Origin: a virus
Lineage: Duplodnaviria; Heunggongvirae; Uroviricota; Caudoviricetes
Virus record (IMG/VR): IMGVR_UViG_2537562189_000007
DNA: 34,565 nt
Direction: 5' to 3' (one strand)
Position 1 is the stretch's first letter; every line of letters begins with the position of its first letter. The notes under the pieces were generated by a model, which worked only from the letters and a program-made list of their open reading frames with translations, was not told the DNA's origin and made no database searches. The position numbers and the translations under genes are program-made. Shown here piece after piece: positions 15,195 through 30,354 of the stretch.

Positions 15195-17171
15195 TCATGC
15201 CGCGGCATCCGCGTTGTTCACTTCCACCTTCACACTGTCAATCAGCAACGTATATGTCGCCGCCTTTGATATGTCTGTCAGTTGCAGTTTGTCCGCCGCC
15301 CCTGATGCCGGAGATTTCACCAGTGTGAACGGTGTACCCCGTTTCTCATCCAGTACCGGCGTCACCTGAATGCTGTTGTTTCCGGCAAACTCAAAAGCCA
15401 GTGTGTGCCATCCGTTATCAAAGACCCCGAACGTATCCAGCTTCGCATTCTGCTTCTTGTGGTACATCGCGTTCAGGTTCGTCGCATCCGTCTGCAGGAA
15501 GAAGGACATCAGCATGTCGTTGCCTTCCTCTGACAGCGTCACTCCCTCCGGCAGGGACGACAACTGCCAGTAAATACCCAGGGCAAACTGATTCGGCACC
15601 AGTGCGCCCGGCACCTTAAACCGCACGCTCACACGTCCACCTTTCTTCAGCAACTCTGCTCCCTGCCCGGCGGCATCATGCTCCAGAAACCAGATGTGGC
15701 TTTCCGGTTTGTTCAGTTGCAGGGCCTTACCACCGGTGGCACCCTCATCACTGACCACAGCCTCAGCGATGTTTTTATTAACACTGTCTCCGCTCGCCGG
15801 TTTGTGATAATAGCGCCAGCCCTGTGATGCCAGGTCTTCACCGGACGCCAGCAGACTCATCAGGGTTCGGTTACTGACCGGGGCTTCCGGCTCTCTCTCC
15901 GGGCCTTCACCGGAAGGTCCGGTGGGCTTCACCGTATCAGGCTGTTTTCCGGTAATGAATTCAGCGGTTCTCCCGGCATGCACCAGAATCGCCGTTGCCA
16001 GACGGTCGGAAATAATCCCACGGCGAGCCCATGAACTGAAATGGCTGGCCCTGTCCACAGATGTCCAGGTCTTCTGGTCATTACGCCACTTTGAACCGTA
16101 ATAACCGACGGCTTCCAGGTCCGGGTCTTCTGCCGGGTTATTGGTCTGCACATTCGCACCATTCTCATCCGTCATTAACGGTACAAAGAAAATGTTCTGC
16201 GACTCCTTCCCCTTATACCCTCCGTATACTGATGCATACCCTTCCGCATGACGCTGCTTCCAGAAATACGTTGTGTCCCCGCAAATCCACGGTACCGCTG
16301 ATGCGCTGCCTCCTGTGCTCTGTGATGCCTGACCGGCAAGCTCCGTTCTGAACTGATTCACCATCGCACTAAACAGCCCCGGATGCTGCGCATGCGTCCC
16401 CACTGCCGCATCACCTTCTCCCTGCATCCACACCACCGCAAGCAGACGGTTTTTCGGGTTCTTCGCCAGTGCGGCTTTAGTCCGGCTCACCAAATCCTGA
16501 TACAGCGGCTTACCCACACCCCAGCGCAGTGAATTTTCCGATGCACCGGCTGATTCGCTGTATGTGCCGTCTGCACCCGTTGTGAATGCCGAAGCACCAC
16601 GGCAGCACGGAACCAGCAGAATGCCCGCATTCGCCGGTATAAACGGCAGCAGTTTTTTGGCGATATGCAGCCCCTGCCCCACGGTTCCGTACTGCCCCTT
16701 TGACAGGTCCGCTTTCGGATGGTTAAGACGGCTCATGTCCTGCACATCATGCAGACAATGGTCCGCCGGAATAATGTCGTTATACTTACAGGCGGCACCG
16801 CCCGGTGTCACCGTACTGCGGCGCGCCAGCTGCTTAATACGCGGGTCCGGACGGTCATATGTCTCCGGCAGCGGAAGGCCTTCACCATACGACATGCCGT
16901 TTGACTGCCCTGCCAGAACCACAACAAAGTAATACTCCGGGTCGCTGGTGGCGCTGATTACTGTGCCTTCTCCATCCGACGGCTTCACCACCACAGGTGT
17001 GCTCACATCACCTTCTGCGACAATCGCCTGAATAAGTGCTGCGCCATCATCCGTATACGAAGAAAACGGCCCGCCGTATGGCTGCCATCCTTCACGAATT
17101 TTTTGAGCAAGTGTATCAGCAAGGTCTGACGGCGACGCCGCCCTGACCACGTCATAGTGTTTAAATGCCAT
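15195..17171 (-). CDS. nanS: Prophage sialate O-acetylesterase (NanS-p-like)
   Basis: 658 aa; N-terminal DUF1737-like segment, SASA esterase core with GQSN motif (VVVLAGQSNGMSYGEG), C-terminal carbohydrate-binding-like region; GGGAGG RBS; location between tRNAs and holin as in EHEC lambdoid prophages. Confidence 0.8.
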   Translation of the reverse strand: MAFKHYDVVRAASPSDLADTLAQKIREGWQPYGGPFSSYTDDGAALIQAIVAEGDVSTPVVVKPSDGEGTVISATSDPEYYFVVVLAGQSNGMSYGEGLPLPETYDRPDPRIKQLARRSTVTPGGAACKYNDIIPADHCLHDVQDMSRLNHPKADLSKGQYGTVGQGLHIAKKLLPFIPANAGILLVPCCRGASAFTTGADGTYSESAGASENSLRWGVGKPLYQDLVSRTKAALAKNPKNRLLAVVWMQGEGDAAVGTHAQHPGLFSAMVNQFRTELAGQASQSTGGSASAVPWICGDTTYFWKQRHAEGYASVYGGYKGKESQNIFFVPLMTDENGANVQTNNPAEDPDLEAVGYYGSKWRNDQKTWTSVDRASHFSSWARRGIISDRLATAILVHAGRTAEFITGKQPDTVKPTGPSGEGPEREPEAPVSNRTLMSLLASGEDLASQGWRYYHKPASGDSVNKNIAEAVVSDEGATGGKALQLNKPESHIWFLEHDAAGQGAELLKKGGRVSVRFKVPGALVPNQFALGIYWQLSSLPEGVTLSEEGNDMLMSFFLQTDATNLNAMYHKKQNAKLDTFGVFDNGWHTLAFEFAGNNSIQVTPVLDEKRGTPFTLVKSPASGAADKLQLTDISKAATYTLLIDSVKVEVNNADAAA

Positions 17172-17367
17172 GAATCCTCCCGGCCGGGATAATGTTGTGA
17201 GTCAGATAAGGGGCGGGCTGAAGTCCGGAAGTTACAGGACAATGACAGAAGGAAGACTACAGCCCGCAATACGAAAAAGGCCGCGCAGTTGCGCAGAGTG
17301 ATTACTGTCGGGTATTATTCGCCAGCTGAAAAATTGATTACTTCACGTTTTGTTGTTTATTCCTTGC

Positions 17368-17397
17368 TGCCCGCGTCTCCCGGCGCGGGCTTTTTTT
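17368..17397 (+). terminator. Intrinsic terminator (plus strand)
   Basis: GCCCGCGtctcccggCGCGGGC followed by TTTTTTT. Confidence 0.55.
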
Positions 17398-17427
17398 GCA
17401 TGTAAAAAGGCTCCTGCGATGAGGAGC
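17397..17427 (-). terminator. Intrinsic terminator (minus strand)
   Basis: Minus strand AGGCTCCTcatcgcAGGAGCCT (8-bp stem) followed by TTTTT; back-to-back with the plus-strand terminator. Confidence 0.5.
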
Positions 17428-17456
17428 CTGGATATATGCCTAATCTCTGTATACAG

Positions 17457-17650
17457 CATGATGCCGGGTGCCTCCCGGTGAATTCTGCAATGACCAGACA
17501 GAATCCGCAACTTGCCTATACAATACGCAACCAAACATCTGTCATTATGCCCCTCCGCTCAGGGGGATTCATCATGCAGGATTTTTTTAACAAATGCTCA
17601 GCCAGACAGGCAACCGTCAACTGACTGAATTGTGAGTGATTTAACATTTC
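17457..17650. repeat. Tandem direct repeat, copy 1 (period ~269 bp)
   Basis: Shares with copy 2 the blocks catg(a/g)tgccgggtgcctcccggtga, atgcccctccgc(t/a)cagggggattca(t/c)catgc and ttttaacaaat(g/a)ctcag...gacaggcaac(c/t)gtcaactgactgaattgtgag; the middle ~70 bp is diverged. Confidence 0.6.
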
Positions 17651-17674
17651 ACTGCCCGGTGCCTTCCCCTCATT

Positions 17675-17697
17675 AAAAAGCCCCTCCGGAGAGGGGC
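17675..17697 (-). terminator. Intrinsic terminator between the two repeat copies
   Basis: Palindrome GCCCCTCcggaGAGGGGC preceded on the plus strand by AAAAA, so the minus strand has hairpin plus TTTTT. Confidence 0.55.
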
Positions 17698-17725
17698 TAA
17701 AGCCGCGTATCTGTATCATCATGCG

Positions 17726-17916
17726 CATGGTGCCGGGTGCCTCCCGGTGAGTTCAGTATCAGCACCTGAACCCGCACCAGATAAGGGATATAACCAACCA
17801 CCTGTCGCTGATATGCCCCTCCGCACAGGGGGATTCACCATGCCAGTTTCTTTTAACAAATACTCAGTCTGACAGGCAACTGTCAACTGACTGAATTGTG
17901 AGACATTTAAAATTTT
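17726..17916. repeat. Tandem direct repeat, copy 2
   Basis: See copy 1; begins 269 bp after it with the same conserved blocks. Confidence 0.6.
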
Positions 17917-18005
17917 CGGGGCATGACTGATACCCGGCTAACCACCTGATGCTTCCTTTTTTAGCAACAAACAGGTCCACCAAAGTGAGACAGAAAAAAT
18001 AAGTG

Positions 18006-18082
18006 TGGCGCGTTGTACTGGATTCGAACCAGTGACCGATTGCTTAGAAGGCAATTGCTCTGTCCGGCTGAGCTAACAACGC
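18006..18082 (-). tRNA. argO: tRNA-Arg (anticodon UCU)
   Basis: Minus strand folds as a 77-nt cloverleaf GCGTTGT/ACAACGC acceptor, anticodon loop CUUCUAA, T-loop GGTTCGAATCC, encoded CCA. Confidence 0.8.
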
Positions 18083-18095
18083 TGAATACCGATAA

Positions 18096-18172
18096 TGGAC
18101 CGCCATCGAGGACTCGAACCCCGCGCAACCAGCTTCGAAGGCTGACGCTCTATCCCGATGAGCTAATGGCGG
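18096..18172 (-). tRNA. argN: tRNA-Arg (anticodon UCG)
   Basis: 77-nt cloverleaf with acceptor CCGCCAT/ATGGCGG, anticodon loop CUUCGAA, T-loop GGTTCGAGTCC, encoded CCA. Gene symbol by synteny with the ileZ-argN-argO cluster. Confidence 0.7.
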
Positions 18173-18181
18173 TATGTGATA

Positions 18182-18257
18182 TGGTGGCCCTTGCTGGATT
18201 TGAACCAGCGACCTGGCGATTATGAGTCGCTCGCTCTCACCACTGAGCTAAAGGGCC
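18182..18257 (-). tRNA. ileZ: tRNA with CAU anticodon, ileX-like (tRNA-Ile2; Met not excluded)
   Basis: 76-nt cloverleaf GGCCCTT...AAGGGCC-A-CCA, anticodon loop CUCAUAA; overall close to E. coli ileX as recalled. Confidence 0.65.
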
Positions 18258-26430: not shown

Positions 26431-27259
26431 GGCTTACCCCCTTGCTGACTGGTTTTACCTGTGCCCAGACGTGCTGCACGTGACGGGCAAATTTCTGCTC
26501 CCACTGAACCTGCGTGAAAACCTTCCCCTCTGCCATCCAGTAATCCCGGAATGCGGCAAGCTCAGCAGGTGTAAATTCCGGCTCAGGCAGAGCCATACCC
26601 CACACTGCTGCCCGTTGTCGAAAATCCGGCGACGGCTGCCAGACAGTAGTCATCGAAAATTTCCCGATGGGTTCGCTCAGGCCGTCCAGGTATTCAGGTT
26701 CGGCTGTCTGCAACGGCGCACCATTCGACTCACTGGTCGGAATACTCTCGCGCGCGTTATGTGTGGGGTTTAATTCTGTATCTGTATCTTTATCTGTCGT
26801 GACTTGTCGTGACAGATGCGTGACACGTCGTGACTCATCGTGACAATCAGCATTATGTTTCCGCAGCTTTTCCCGCTCCCGCTGCGCTCTCTTACGCTCT
26901 GCCGGGGATTTTGCCGTTTGCGAAACGTTACCATTGTCCTCTTTCAGCACCTGACGTTTTTCCCATCCGGAAATAAGGTCACCATCCAGAACCCGCCCCT
27001 GCATTGCATGCAAAATTGAATCAATTACGTCTTCCGTCACATCAAGCGCACTTGCTAAATCTTCCGTCGTGACATCAATGTGACCACGTAGTGACACGCC
27101 GTGACATGTCGTGACATTTCGTGACGCGCTCACCAGAAGGTGGATATACACTGCCATCACTGTTGCGATTGGCTGTCCTGATACCCTGGCAATCGTTCGC
27201 CACTTGGGGTCATTTGGCATGTCATGCCACAATCTGAGCCAGGCATTAGCCATACTCAC
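26222..27259 (-). CDS. Replication initiator (lambda O-like), carrying ori-type iterons
   Basis: 345 aa at the O position after ydaS/ydaT-like genes; two arrays of CGTGAC direct repeats at helical periodicity inside the coding sequence. Confidence 0.55.
   Translation of the reverse strand: MSMANAWLRLWHDMPNDPKWRTIARVSGQPIATVMAVYIHLLVSASRNVTTCHGVSLRGHIDVTTEDLASALDVTEDVIDSILHAMQGRVLDGDLISGWEKRQVLKEDNGNVSQTAKSPAERKRAQREREKLRKHNADCHDESRRVTHLSRQVTTDKDTDTELNPTHNARESIPTSESNGAPLQTAEPEYLDGLSEPIGKFSMTTVWQPSPDFRQRAAVWGMALPEPEFTPAELAAFRDYWMAEGKVFTQVQWEQKFARHVQHVWAQVKPVSKGVSHAASGGTASRAVQEIRAAREQWERDNGFISNGNGLEAVGAYGGGVFEPLDSEERGRTFEALDCPDWCDD
26777..26844. repeat. Iteron array 1 (5 x ~10.4-bp CGTGAC repeats) with adjacent tctgta repeats
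   Basis: CGTGAC ends at 26803, 26813, 26824, 26834, 26844; preceded by tctgtatctgtatctttatctg. Confidence 0.6.
27044..27124. repeat. Iteron array 2 (6 x GTGAC repeats plus one inverted copy)
   Basis: GTGAC ends at 27072, 27083, 27094, 27104, 27114, 27124 (spacing 10-11 bp); inverted CGTCAC at 27044..27049. Confidence 0.6.
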
Positions 27260-27321
27260 CTCTTCTGATACCGAACTTTACCCACGAACTTCCGGAAGAA
27301 ATCCGGTATAAATATTGTTGG

Positions 27322-27747
27322 TCAATGCACAACAACTGCATTACCAGGCTGACCACCACTGTTAGTCAGGGTGCCCCAGGCGATCGCTACAGCGACAAAA
27401 TCATCCACATCTTTCACCAGCCGATCCCGTCGTTCGACGATCTCCCGGTAATATTCAGAACTGTGACTGCGCATACGGGCCACCAGCAAAGGCGGCATCG
27501 CCTTTTCGATCGCCGGTAACAGCGCCTGAATTTTTTCAACAGCATCAGACGTGTCCTTCTCCACCCAGCGGAAAATTTTCTGGGTATTACGAGCCAGGGC
27601 TTCCGGATGGCTGTCGTCGTACAGTTCCGGGAACGTCATCCCCAGCTCGAAATAAATCCGGGCTATTTCAGCTGCGGGAACTTTCTCACCATCAGGATGT
27701 GCCCAGGCATTCATCGCCATGCGGATGTGTTCATGCTTGATTTTCAT
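27322..27747 (-). CDS. ydaT: YdaT-like regulator
   Basis: 141 aa beginning MKIKHEHI and ending VVVH, resembling Rac YdaT as recalled; downstream of ydaS-like gene. Confidence 0.65.
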   Translation of the reverse strand: MKIKHEHIRMAMNAWAHPDGEKVPAAEIARIYFELGMTFPELYDDSHPEALARNTQKIFRWVEKDTSDAVEKIQALLPAIEKAMPPLLVARMRSHSSEYYREIVERRDRLVKDVDDFVAVAIAWGTLTNSGGQPGNAVVVH

Positions 27748-27750
27748 GAA

Positions 27751-28032
27751 TCAACCTCCATCAGCCTTTTTGGTGTTAAGTTCATATTTGTGACGTGAAG
27801 GGGACGTGATTCCAGTGTATTCGGGCCATATAAGCTCCCAGTCATTAGGTCTCAATTCTCGTCTTGTAACATGTCCTCCAGTTTCTGCTTCTATCATCAA
27901 CGCACGAACAGGAGACACAGGTGAAGTTCCAGATGCCATTTGGGACAAGAAAGACGGAGACACACCAAGATTGGTCGCAAATTTTTTTGCTTCTCCAGTT
28001 TTTAATGATTTGATGAATTCCTTTAGCGTCAT
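27751..28032 (-). CDS. ydaS: YdaS-like Cro-type HTH regulator
   Basis: 93 aa with HTH and ...GHVTRRELRPNDWELIWPE; first gene of the rightward operon, divergent from the repressor genes. Confidence 0.65.
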   Translation of the reverse strand: MTLKEFIKSLKTGEAKKFATNLGVSPSFLSQMASGTSPVSPVRALMIEAETGGHVTRRELRPNDWELIWPEYTGITSPSRHKYELNTKKADGG

Positions 28033-28067
28033 AATTTTTATCTCAGCACATTTAGAACAAGTAAAAG

Positions 28068-28095
28068 TTTATACACAACTAAATAAACCAGTCAA
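28068..28095 (-). promoter_or_regulatory. Candidate pR-like promoter for ydaS, overlapped by an inverted-repeat operator
   Basis: Minus strand TTGACT - 16 nt - TATAAA; inverted repeat GTTTAT(N10)ATAAAC at 28067..28088 covers the -10 and spacer. Confidence 0.45.
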
Positions 28096-28099
28096 GTAT

Positions 28100-28128
28100 T
28101 TGCTTATTTTGCGATTACTAAAGATAAT
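28100..28128 (+). promoter_or_regulatory. Candidate pRM-like promoter giving a leaderless repressor mRNA
   Basis: TTGCTT - 17 nt - GATAAT; predicted start ~7 nt downstream coincides with the A of the ATG at 28135; no SD sequence. Confidence 0.4.
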
Positions 28129-28134
28129 GTATGT

Positions 28135-28506
28135 ATGGAAACAAAAGAGATTCGGCGTTTACGCCTCAAAGAGTGGTTCAAAGACAGGACTTTGCCGCCT
28201 AAAGAGAAAAGTTACTTATCTCAGTTAATGAGCGGTAAAGCTACGTTTGGCGAAAAGGCAGCTAGACGTATTGAACAAACATATGGGATGCCTGGGGGAT
28301 ATCTTGATATTGAACCAGAAGACATAACAGAGTCTCCATCATCAAGATCTATAGCATTAACCCCTAACCAATTAGAATTGCTACAAATATTTAGTGCTTT
28401 CCCTGATAATGAGCAGCAGGAGATCATAAAAGAACTAAAAAACAAAAAAGAGGCTATGGAAGATCTTGTCGCACGTTGGTTGGCACGACAAGGTCGCCGA
28501 GCCTGA
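28135..28506 (+). CDS. HTH repressor-like protein, paralog of the downstream PaaR2-like regulator
   Basis: 123 aa; N-terminal HTH; C-terminal 45 aa (LTPNQLELLQIFSAFPDNEQQEIIKELKNKKEAMEDLVARWLA) closely parallels the C-terminus of the next gene. Confidence 0.6.
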   Translation: METKEIRRLRLKEWFKDRTLPPKEKSYLSQLMSGKATFGEKAARRIEQTYGMPGGYLDIEPEDITESPSSRSIALTPNQLELLQIFSAFPDNEQQEIIKELKNKKEAMEDLVARWLARQGRRA

Positions 28507-28525
28507 CGGGATATATAGATATCAG

Positions 28526-28987
28526 ATGGGCGTACTCGAAATTAGTGCTCTTAGAATTAAGATGCTTCTATTGGCAAAAGGCTGGAGCCAAGCAGGACTT
28601 GCGCGCAGAATTGGTATTGCTCAACAATCCGTGCAACGGTGGGTTTGTGGTATCTCAAGCCCTACGGCAGCTAATCTAGATAAACTATCTGAAGTAACGG
28701 GACTTCCTCAGTATTGGTTTTTCTTACCATTAAATGAAGAAAAAAAAGACAGGGCACAGGATATATTAAAAATAACCCCTAATCAAAAGGAACTACTTCA
28801 AACATTTGAGGCATTTCCAGAGGAAGATCAACAGCAAATGCTTAAAGATATGAAGGAGAAAAAAGAAGCAATGGATCGTATAGTTGCAAGGTGGTTAGCA
28901 GCACAACAAAAAGTCAACCAAGCAGAATACCAGCACTTACAAAACGAGGTTCACCATGAACACAGCCCTTTCACCGATGGTTTCTGA
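28526..28987 (+). CDS. paaR2: PaaR2-like HTH transcriptional regulator
   Basis: Internal ATG 28526 (MGVLEISALRIKMLLLAKGWSQAGLARRIGIAQQSVQRWV...); directly precedes the antitoxin-toxin pair, as in three-component paaR-paaA-parE systems. Confidence 0.65.
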   Translation: MGVLEISALRIKMLLLAKGWSQAGLARRIGIAQQSVQRWVCGISSPTAANLDKLSEVTGLPQYWFFLPLNEEKKDRAQDILKITPNQKELLQTFEAFPEEDQQQMLKDMKEKKEAMDRIVARWLAAQQKVNQAEYQHLQNEVHHEHSPFTDGF

Positions 28988-29147
28988 ATTTGAAACTGTC
29001 GAGCAAGAAAACAGTTACAACGAATGGCTGCGTGCGAAAGTAGCAGCGAGCCTTGCAGATCCGCGCCCAGCAATTCCCCATGACGAGGTTGAGCGTAGAA
29101 TGGCAGAACGCTTTGCTAAAATGCGCAAGGAACGGAGTGAGCAGTAA
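28956..29147 (+). CDS. paaA2: PaaA2-like antitoxin
   Basis: 63 aa (MNTALSPMVSEFETVEQENSYNEWLRAKVAASLADPRPAIPHDEVERRMAERFAKMRKERSEQ), GAGG RBS; stop overlaps toxin start (TAAATG). Confidence 0.7.
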   Translation: MNTALSPMVSEFETVEQENSYNEWLRAKVAASLADPRPAIPHDEVERRMAERFAKMRKERSEQ

Positions 29148-29435
29148 ATGTTACCCGTGTTATGGCTTGAAAGCGCAGATACCGACTTGGATGATATAAC
29201 CAGCTATATTGCACGCTTTGACATAGATGCGGCAGAACGTTTATGGAAACGCTTAAGGACTTGCGTTCAGCCATTATCTGAGCATCCGTATTTATACCCG
29301 CCAAGTGACAGAGTGCCAGGTTTGCGTGAAATTGTAGCTCACCCCAATTACATTATTCTGTACCGAGTGACAATTTCAGGCATTGAAATTGTTAACGTAG
29401 TTCACGCCCGCCGACAGTTCCCTGTAACACCTTAA
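29148..29435 (+). CDS. parE2: ParE-family toxin (ParE2-like)
   Basis: 95 aa with ParE/RelE-like features (LPVLWLESADTDLDDITSYIARFD...IVNVVHARR). Confidence 0.75.
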   Translation: MLPVLWLESADTDLDDITSYIARFDIDAAERLWKRLRTCVQPLSEHPYLYPPSDRVPGLREIVAHPNYIILYRVTISGIEIVNVVHARRQFPVTP

Positions 29436-29452
29436 TCCCCCTAAAGCAAAAC

Positions 29453-29482
29453 CTTCCCCCTCTCAAGAGGGAGGGTTATTCC
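29453..29482 (+). terminator. Possible intrinsic terminator after parE2
   Basis: C-rich/G-rich hairpin (ccttccccctc tcaa gagggaggg) followed by ttatt; weak U-tract. Confidence 0.3.
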
Positions 29483-29627
29483 CGCCCATCAGTTAAGTTA
29501 GATATTGACCGTTTAGTTTATTTTTGTATAAACTAATTTCACCAACCCACCCTGCCCCACAGAACGCCAGGCAATACTTCGAGTTACCCGGCAGTGGTCA
29601 GGGGTTAAGTAGCCAGCCCGAGGCGTA

Positions 29628-29656
29628 TGAACATGACGGCGGGAACACTTTATATA
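29628..29656 (+). promoter_or_regulatory. Candidate sigma70 promoter
   Basis: TGAACA - 17 nt - TATATA, about 55 nt upstream of the 50-aa ORF. Confidence 0.3.
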
Positions 29657-29712
29657 ACAGCGCAGCAGGTTTTTAGTTCCGCGCCCCGGCGTTAAGGGGA
29701 AATGAGGTCAAC

Positions 29713-29865
29713 ATGGATACGCTCAATCTTGGCAACAACGAATCTCTGGTATGCGGTGTGTTCCCTAACCAGGACGGCACGTTTACCGCGATGACGTATA
29801 CCAAAAGTAAAAAGTTTAAAACCGAAGCTGGCGCGCGTCGCTGGTTAGCCAGAAACACTAACTGA
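29713..29865 (+). CDS. Hypothetical small protein (50 aa)
   Basis: ATG with GAGG 5 nt upstream; MDTLNLGNNESLVCGVFPNQDGTFTAMTYTKSKKFKTEAGARRWLARNTN; not in the ORF track. Confidence 0.3.
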   Translation: MDTLNLGNNESLVCGVFPNQDGTFTAMTYTKSKKFKTEAGARRWLARNTN

Positions 29866-30354
29866 TTAGCACCAGTAAAAACAGGTTGCCACTGGTTAAT
29901 TTACCCTGAAAAGTCAGGGCATAACACGAAAGCGCACGGCGAAGTTCGTATATCTGTACGGCGTCGTTAAATTTTCTTCGACCGTGCACTTCCGGTTGTG
30001 GCAATCCGCGAAATGGCGCGGCGGTAAGTATGGCTGGGGTTTCCTCCATTGCTCCAGAAAATGCACCGGGTTGTCAGGTTGACCATACGCTTAAGTGACA
30101 GCCCCGCCACAATACCCATGTGTAGTCTTTGGTGGCATCAGTTCTACTCCGTGACTGCTCTGCCACCCTTTTTAAAGTGAATTTTGTGATGCGGTGAATG
30201 CGGCTAAGCGCACGCGGAACAGTTAAAACCGTAAAGTGGTCTTTTACTGGCGTAACAGACATCAACTAACAATCCGGCGTTAATTGTTAACTGGTTAACG
30301 TCACCTGGAGGCACCAGGCACCACATCACAAAATTCATTGTTGAGGACGCGATA

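Follow-up and report, generated by a model that had tools for sequence, protein, structure and literature searches.

The DNA analysed here (the window) is a stretch of 34,565 nucleotides from a virus of the Caudoviricetes, IMG/VR record IMGVR_UViG_2537562189_000007. Within it, the genes ydaS on the minus strand and paaR on the plus strand are divergent. The 102-bp gap between them (28033-28134; 97 bp in EDL933) is very probably the control region, of the right-operator (OR) type, of a lambdoid immunity module of the PaaR2/YdaS/YdaT kind, and its repressor messenger is predicted to begin on the ATG of paaR. The genes around the gap are as follows.

27322..27747, minus strand: ydaT, a CII-like activator (Pfam PF06254 YdaT_toxin, E=3e-10; PHROG 163 CII-like activator, E=4e-45)
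27751..28032, minus strand: ydaS, a Cro-like repressor (Pfam PF15943, E=1e-9; 75% identity to YdaS of CP-933P over 72 aa)
28135..28506, plus strand: paaR, a 123-aa CI analogue of the PaaR2 type without S24 (similarity to PaaR2; the RefSeq start is the same codon)
28526..28987, plus strand: a repressor paralog of 153 aa (Pfam HTH_3)
28956-29147, plus strand: paaA, the antitoxin (Pfam PaaA2, E=1e-20)
29148-29435, plus strand: parE, the toxin (Pfam ParE_toxin, E=1e-16)

PaaR of the window is 74-75% identical over its full length to PaaR2 of CP-933P, a cryptic prophage of E. coli O157:H7. Its N-terminal domain shares 52 of the first 58 residues with the solved PaaR2 N-terminal domain (PDB 7nkv, 8c3k and 8c3l; E=2e-31), which was deposited under the name 'Phage repressor protein CI'. 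No relevant paper came out of a literature search on the structures 7NKV, 8C3K and 8C3L. A Pfam scan gives no match for the 123-aa protein, and an S24 peptidase is absent from it by the same scan and by a search for the GDSM motif. The paaR gene is the head of a toxin-antitoxin operon and encodes a repressor without the S24 cleavage domain.

The gap contains two promoters, PRM for paaR and PR for ydaS, which are arranged back to back; 4 bp separate the two -35 hexamers.

28100..28105, plus strand: PRM -35 hexamer TTGCTT, identical in CP-933P and 90-100% conserved in 25 related loci
28123..28128, plus strand: PRM -10 hexamer GATAAT, identical in CP-933P; CAAAAT or CACAAT in the family
28135..28137, plus strand: predicted transcription start A28135, the first base of the paaR ATG, 6 nt after the -10 as in CP-933P
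28090..28095, minus strand: PR -35 hexamer TTGACT, identical in CP-933P; TTGACN is kept across the family
28066..28073, minus strand: PR -10 region, TAAACT (28071..28066, 18-nt spacer), the hexamer kept in the family, overlapping TATAAA (28073..28068, 16-nt spacer)

PRM consists of TTGCTT, a 17-nt spacer, GATAAT, the six nucleotides GTATGT, and the ATG, which occupies 28135-28137. Its A is the seventh base past the -10 hexamer, which is the usual position of a transcription start. The paaR messenger from PRM is therefore predicted to be leaderless, with its 5' end on the ATG. None of the strings GGAG, GAGG, AGGA, AAGG, GGA, GAG and AGG, taken as Shine-Dalgarno elements, is present in the 20 nt upstream of this ATG. 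An earlier reading, made from the sequence only, had proposed TTGCTT-17-GATAAT with its start on the repressor ATG and no Shine-Dalgarno, and direct reading bears out the hexamers and the lack of a Shine-Dalgarno; all of its motifs are found where it placed them. It had named an upstream in-frame start with a ribosome-binding site as one of two findings that would speak against it. Such a start is excluded by the sequence, as the frame is closed by a TAA at 28084-28086 and no in-frame ATG, GTG or TTG lies between this codon and 28135.

Automatic gene calls for this protein family (P0001, P0004, P0006 and P0020) are often extended upstream through the promoter, to 130-150 aa in place of 121-123, and one NCBI gene model apparently begins at an ATT codon at 28114. 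These extended calls look like the typical annotation artefact of leaderless genes. The promoter assignment has practical value for annotation, since gene callers over-extend leaderless paaR (130-150 aa in P0001, P0004 and P0006) and the true product has 123 aa.

CP-933P (also Sp12) provides the experimental precedent. Jurenas 2021 (PMC8630535) studied its 97-bp paaR2-ydaS gap. In that work, 5' RACE mapped the beginning of the PRM933P transcript to the A of the paaR2 ATG, and the authors call paaR2 leaderless, like lambda cI (PMC8630535). N-terminal sequencing of PaaR2 gave MQKKE, and the intact mass determined by mass spectrometry confirmed the protein (PMC8630535). The footprints of PaaR2 and YdaS span both promoters, and electrophoretic mobility-shift assays and gfp fusions support a switch (PMC8630535). 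PaaR2 and YdaS each repress both promoters, and low PaaR2 activates PRM (PMC8630535). The CP-933P region contains 18-bp palindromes with the half-site consensus GTTTAGTAA (PMC8630535). PL933P and PR933P share their -35 and -10, PaaR2 represses PR and PL, and YdaT activates a PRE promoter (PMC8630535); YdaT acts through a TTGATT-N6-AATCAA site (PMC9986795). The leaderless, back-to-back arrangement resembling lambda pRM-cI, which the sequence-only reading had proposed for the window, is supported because the same arrangement was shown experimentally in this homologous region.

The window and CP-933P have the same gene order, ydaT-ydaS, switch, paaR-paaA-parE. They are identical in the PRM -35 and -10, the PR -35, the PRM spacer length of 17 nt and the 6 nt between -10 and ATG. 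Both have OR operators of the GTTTA(G/T) type, a second set at PL, and the YdaT operator TTGATT-N6-AATCAA. In the alignment with EDL933 (L002), the block AGTCAAGTATTTGCTT, which holds both -35 hexamers, and the block GATTACTAAAGATAAT, which holds the right operator half and the PRM -10, show no change. Directly before the ATG, the window has GTATGT and EDL933 has TACCAC, six bases in each case with different sequences. The ydaS-paaR DNA is about 69% identical to CP-933P, and YdaS is 75% identical. The window differs from CP-933P in that the left half of its PRM operator is degenerate, the outer PR half-site is shifted by 4 bp, and the HTH_3 paralog adds a fourth gene between paaR and paaA, whereas CP-933P has the three-gene operon paaR2-paaA2-parE2. 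In NCTC9112 the ydaS/paaR gap differs from the window by four substitutions, none of them inside the four hexamers. The window allele is present at >=90% identity in only 19 of 5,426 complete E. coli genomes, and 593 of the 5,426 fall in the 60-80% identity band that holds the CP-933P type.

Conservation was examined by a one-genome-per-species scan with the PaaR alignment, which gave 46 loci in many genera, including Photorhabdus, Xenorhabdus, Arsenophonus, Erwinia, Yersinia, Proteus, Raoultella, Citrobacter, Pantoea, Massilia, Mycoavidus, Gilliamella and Mannheimia. The set comprises 49 loci once the window, EDL933 and NCTC9112 are included. The pattern TTG(C/A)TT-17-nAnnAT, with a spacer ending in ACTAA, is present in 41 of the 49. 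Among these 41, the -10 and the ATG are separated by 6 nt in 25, by 5 nt in one and by 7 nt in one; L022 and L049 lie outside the search pattern and, on visual inspection, have 6 nt in the same geometry. Across the 25 loci, conservation is 90-100% in columns -36 to -7 and 100% in the ATG, and the six discriminator columns reach 30-50%, with 20 distinct 6-mers. A length fixed at 6 nt with a free sequence is far beyond chance. This is the outcome that selection on the spacing between the -10 and the 5'-terminal AUG would be expected to produce.

Five loci of Orbaceae and Pasteurellaceae (L039, L041, L044, L046 and L047) have the ATG further downstream, with AGGAG or GAGG 5-6 nt before it. They form a natural control, in that a textbook Shine-Dalgarno is present only where a leader exists. 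In Xenorhabdus and Photorhabdus (L006-L013, L027 and L028), TTGCTT-17-CACAAT is kept and the ATG lies 54-85 nt downstream without a clear Shine-Dalgarno. A second promoter nearer to the ATG is possible in these two genera, for example the TTATAA located 5 nt upstream in Photorhabdus. The generalisation that all relatives with a long leader contain a Shine-Dalgarno was rejected, as the textbook element is found in the five loci only.

Two further arrangements were observed at the start codon. In L024 and L025 (Erwinia, S24 type; positions 1995-2009), the discriminator reads GGGAGG or AGGAGG, and another ATG stands two codons past the first. This may be a dual start, with the Shine-Dalgarno correctly spaced for the second ATG on a leadered transcript of the PRE type and the first ATG used leaderless. 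In L016 (Morganella psychrotolerans, about 1985-2015), the ATG 6 nt past CAAAAT is out of frame with the PaaR homology, and a run of seven A lies between them; a frameshift, a slippery run or an error of assembly may account for the break.

On the opposite strand, the sequence-only reading had assigned ydaS a promoter TTGACT-16-TATAAA. Both hexamers are present (28095..28090 and 28073..28068, separated by 16 nt), and the -35 stands. The -10 conserved in the family is instead TAAACT with an 18-nt spacer, which overlaps TATAAA by four bases. About 35 related loci have TTGACN, 16-18 nt and then a nearly invariant TAAACT, and most relatives have no -10-like hexamer in the TATAAA register, CP-933P among them (CACTAA). 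TTGACT and TAAACT are also the hexamers that can be read in common between PR933P and PL933P in EDL933 (L002); the -10 of CP-933P PR was deduced in this way, from the sequences together with the statement that the two promoters share elements (PMC8630535). TAAACT retains T-12, A-11 and T-7, whereas TATAAA lacks the highly conserved T at -7, and the promoter scan returned the 18-nt version. TAAACT is thus favoured, though not strongly. That PR is instead TTGACT-16-TATAAA with a start near A28062 is unlikely but deserves consideration: TATAAA matches TATAAT in five of six positions, the purine A28062 is located 6 nt past it, PL of CP-933P has a 16-nt spacer, and PL of the window has the same TGTATAAACT arrangement, so that both hexamers co-occur twice. 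The predicted starts of the two readings are 2-4 nt apart.

Operators of the GTTTAGTAA type overlap both OR promoters and recur at PL downstream of parE; two of the half-sites are weak or shifted. The regulatory sites outside the promoter hexamers are as follows, with no strand given for the palindromic operators.

28067..28084: operator over the PR -10 and spacer, halves GTTTATACA and CAACTAAAT, homologous to IR3 of CP-933P; second-best 18-bp matrix match in the window
28106..28123: operator in the PRM spacer, halves ATTTTGCGA and TTACTAAAG, the right half being identical to IR1 of CP-933P; third-best matrix match
29505..29536, plus strand: PL/OL analogue, TTGACC-16-TATAAA or TTGACC-18-TAAACT, corresponding to PL933P
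27737..27754: YdaT operator TTGATTTTCATGAATCAA, the PRE analogue, lying across the stop of ydaS and the start of ydaT

In the family, the operator has the form of an 18-bp palindrome, GTTTAx-N6-xTAAAC, whose register in the window is 28067-28084. A half-site matrix was trained on the other loci with the window excluded, and 18-bp palindromes were scored over 34.5 kb. The three best matches are all at the expected places: 29516-29533 inside the PL/OL analogue, which is the best of the whole window, and 28067-28084 and 28106-28123, both at OR. Half-sites of >=7 bits number four in 57 bp at OR, with 0.09 expected, and four in 42 bp at OL, with 0.07 expected (P about 1e-6 at each). The PL/OL site, downstream of parE, carries a perfect 9-bp inverted repeat, TTAGTTTAT-N6-ATAAACTAA, with the canonical N6 spacing. 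The YdaT operator TTGATTTTCATGAATCAA is the only place in the window where the published TTGATT-N6-AATCAA (PMC9986795), the OM site of CP-933P, is matched perfectly, and the published CP-933P PRE primer ATGCGGATGTGTTCATGCTT matches the window exactly at 27720-27739.

The inverted repeat GTTTAT(N10)ATAAAC, which had been noted over the ydaS -10, is present (arms at 28067-28072 and 28083-28088, 10 nt between), and its arms are real operator-type half-sites. The left arm is the conserved half-site, and the right arm is part of a strong half-site at 28080-28088 (11.0 bits) that lies 4 bp outside the 18-bp register of the family. Its N10 spacing is non-canonical, as the family has N6, and the same 221 bp contain six further 6-nt inverted repeats. 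The N10 repeat is probably not the bound unit.

Several points weigh against the reading of the gap as a switch of the CP-933P type. A scan with the sigma-70 consensus finds one site in 1.1 kb with 2.0 expected, and this is only PR, as TTGACT-18-TAAACT. PRM falls below the scan threshold, with 8 of 12 consensus matches and 3 of 6 in its -35, a weak match. The PR half-site in the canonical register (28076-28084) is weak at 3.8 bits, while the shifted one has 11.0 bits, and the left half ATTTTGCGA of the PRM operator is degenerate at -0.6 bits; operator occupancy may therefore differ from that in CP-933P. All functional statements on the window allele would be carried over from CP-933P across about 69% DNA identity. 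By consensus alone, the promoters are at or below chance. Their significance comes from conservation, because the PRM core and the PR -35 are identical to those of the mapped CP-933P promoters and are conserved in dozens of loci of many genera.

The scan result also bears on the explanation that the hexamers are chance occurrences in AT-rich DNA and that the sole source of paaR expression is an upstream promoter, such as a YdaT-dependent PRE, with a leadered messenger. The lack of enrichment of consensus matches, the 8/12 match of PRM and the presence of a PRE analogue are consistent with it. The PRM core, however, is identical to an experimentally mapped promoter, the conservation is position-specific across genera, with a discriminator fixed in length and free in sequence, and a leadered paaR messenger would have no Shine-Dalgarno sequence. 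This explanation is hardly credible, and the mapped CP-933P promoter can be transferred to the window allele with confidence.

With PRM and PR as genuine promoters, the 102-bp gap would act as the genetic switch of a CP-933P-like lambdoid prophage of E. coli. PR would transcribe ydaS-ydaT and the replication genes with a leader of about 26-30 nt. PRM would start on A28135, and ribosomes would recognise the 5'-terminal AUG of the leaderless paaR messenger. By homology, PaaR as the CI analogue and YdaS as the Cro analogue would bind overlapping half-sites of the GTTTA(G/T) type, which cover 28067-28088, with the -10 and spacer of PR, and 28106-28123 in the spacer of PRM, with a second cluster at PL. 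PaaR on the PR-proximal operators would shut off ydaS-ydaT and the replication genes, and the weak PRM would yield PaaR together with the toxin-antitoxin pair. YdaS would bind the same region with the opposite preference, and YdaT at 27737-27754 would give rise to a second, leadered paaR transcript. The exact transcription starts, the protein binding and the bistability are those predicted by homology to CP-933P; the sequence anatomy, the homology itself and the conserved geometry are direct observations. This mechanism is already published for the close relative CP-933P, and the interpretation given in the sequence-only reading is essentially correct. The additions made here are modest and consist of the family-wide leaderless geometry and the tandem orphan repressor.

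The orphan repressor is the HTH_3 paralog at 28526, which starts 19 nt past the paaR stop and overlaps paaA by 32 nt at its 3' end. It shares 40% identity with PaaR in the C-terminal domain, and it has no recognisable promoter, operator region or Shine-Dalgarno of its own. Homology between the window and the three-gene NCTC9112 arrangement ends right behind the paaR stop, and the tandem of paaR and HTH_3 paralog is found in 17 of the 5,426 complete E. coli genomes. In two other E. coli prophages (L004 and L005), the HTH_3 type is located directly opposite ydaS in the CI position with paaA-parE behind it, and a TAAAAT hexamer ends 6 nt before an in-frame ATG. This position, together with the canonical HTH_3 domain of the paralog and the lack of a Pfam match for the 123-aa protein, would fit a module in which the paralog is the true immunity repressor and the gene at 28135 is only an autoregulator of the toxin-antitoxin operon. 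Such a division of roles is highly improbable. The OR and OL operators fit the PaaR2-type half-site, and matches in the window to ACAC-N7-GTGT, a paralog operator guessed from L004, are at the level of chance. The operator region that would belong to the paralog has been lost, the start of the paralog lies only 19 nt past the paaR stop, NCTC9112 keeps the same immunity region without it, and PaaR2 represses PR and PL in CP-933P (PMC8630535).

The region resembles OR of lambda (PRM-cI/PR-cro) in its divergent back-to-back promoters with shared operators and a weak PRM, in the leaderless repressor messenger that begins at the AUG, in the second operator set at PL, and in a CII-type activator that leads to an alternative, leadered repressor transcript (PMC8630535). 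In contrast to lambda, PaaR lacks the S24 self-cleavage domain, a ParE toxin-antitoxin pair replaces rexAB, and the operators are 18-bp repeats of the GTTTAGTAA type, of which CP-933P has four, where lambda has three sites of 17 bp. In function the region would be like lambda OR, but at the sequence level it does not belong with it, as it has no S24 and another operator type. No sequence homology of these regulators to lambda CI or Cro was observed, though no test aimed at it was made. The racR-ydaS region of the Rac prophage also has a YdaS-type Cro analogue opposite a CI analogue (PMC9638921). There, racR has three mapped promoters, of which the strongest, PracR3, gives a leaderless transcript (PMC9638921). 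RacR is counted as a different protein family, and Rac has other operators and lacks paaA-parE. A leaderless repressor is thus known three times, for lambda cI, CP-933P paaR2 and Rac racR (PMC9638921).

At 11 of the 27 short-spacing loci (L024-L026, L030, L031, L033-L035, L037, L040 and L043; Erwinia, Yersinia, Proteus, Brenneria and others), the CI repressor is of the S24 (LexA-like) kind, and what it has in common with PaaR is confined to the N-terminal 58 residues, the DNA-binding domain, at 60-78% identity. These loci have the same PR/PRM block, including the geometry of -10, 6 nt and ATG. Their repressors differ in the C-terminus, which is a self-cleaving S24 peptidase with the GDSM motif and not the PaaR2 oligomerisation domain, and are presumably SOS-inducible. 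No characterised S24 relative with the PaaR2 N-terminal domain was found in the literature searched. Because 11 of the 27 loci encode S24 repressors, the promoter-operator block travels with the DNA-binding domain and not with the C-terminal domain. A 6-nt spacing that is fixed across genera and across two kinds of C-terminal domain provides independent evolutionary support for selected leaderless expression of the repressor, and the related loci form a natural series for the study of leaderless initiation.

A joint reading of these results, offered tentatively and with somewhat less than even confidence, is that the promoter-operator block and the 58-aa DNA-binding domain form an ancient mobile 'immunity cassette', to which the window adds a captured second repressor as a passenger. 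The cassette may have spread over Enterobacterales, Orbaceae, Pasteurellaceae and even Burkholderiales endosymbionts, joined interchangeably to the S24 self-cleaving domain or to the PaaR2-type oligomerisation domain. Selection may fix the order of -10, any 6 nt and ATG, with a few lineages that carry a leader with a Shine-Dalgarno instead. The HTH_3 paralog may derive from a different immunity type and may have been captured with its operators left behind, so that its only expression would be as a passenger of the leaderless operon. If this is true, the paralog perhaps gives immunity to a second phage type.

Beyond the immunity module, the window contains lysis, terminase and head genes by similarity, and as a lambdoid prophage the element seems more complete than CP-933P. 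The late region at 15195-18257 (minus strand) has a layout like that of Shiga toxin (Stx) phages. It comprises a tRNA trio at 18006-18257 (minus strand; Met-CAT, Arg-TCG and Arg-TCT) and a gene for an esterase of the SASA/NanS type at 15195-17171 (minus strand). No stxA or stxB open reading frames are present between the tRNA genes and the esterase gene, and the related prophage of strain RM7190 has stx2a at the corresponding position. An identity of the window with the Stx2a prophage of RM7190 was rejected, since the window is a mosaic relative only and is without stx open reading frames. In the related RM7190 record, RefSeq labels the counterpart of the Met-CAT tRNA as tRNA-Ile. An Rfam scan of 27000-30200 finds no RNA family in the intergenic region. 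Its sole match is the small RNA DicF (RF00039, 61 bits, E=3e-12), which lies at 30117-30168 on the plus strand, downstream of the predicted PL in a dicB-type region.

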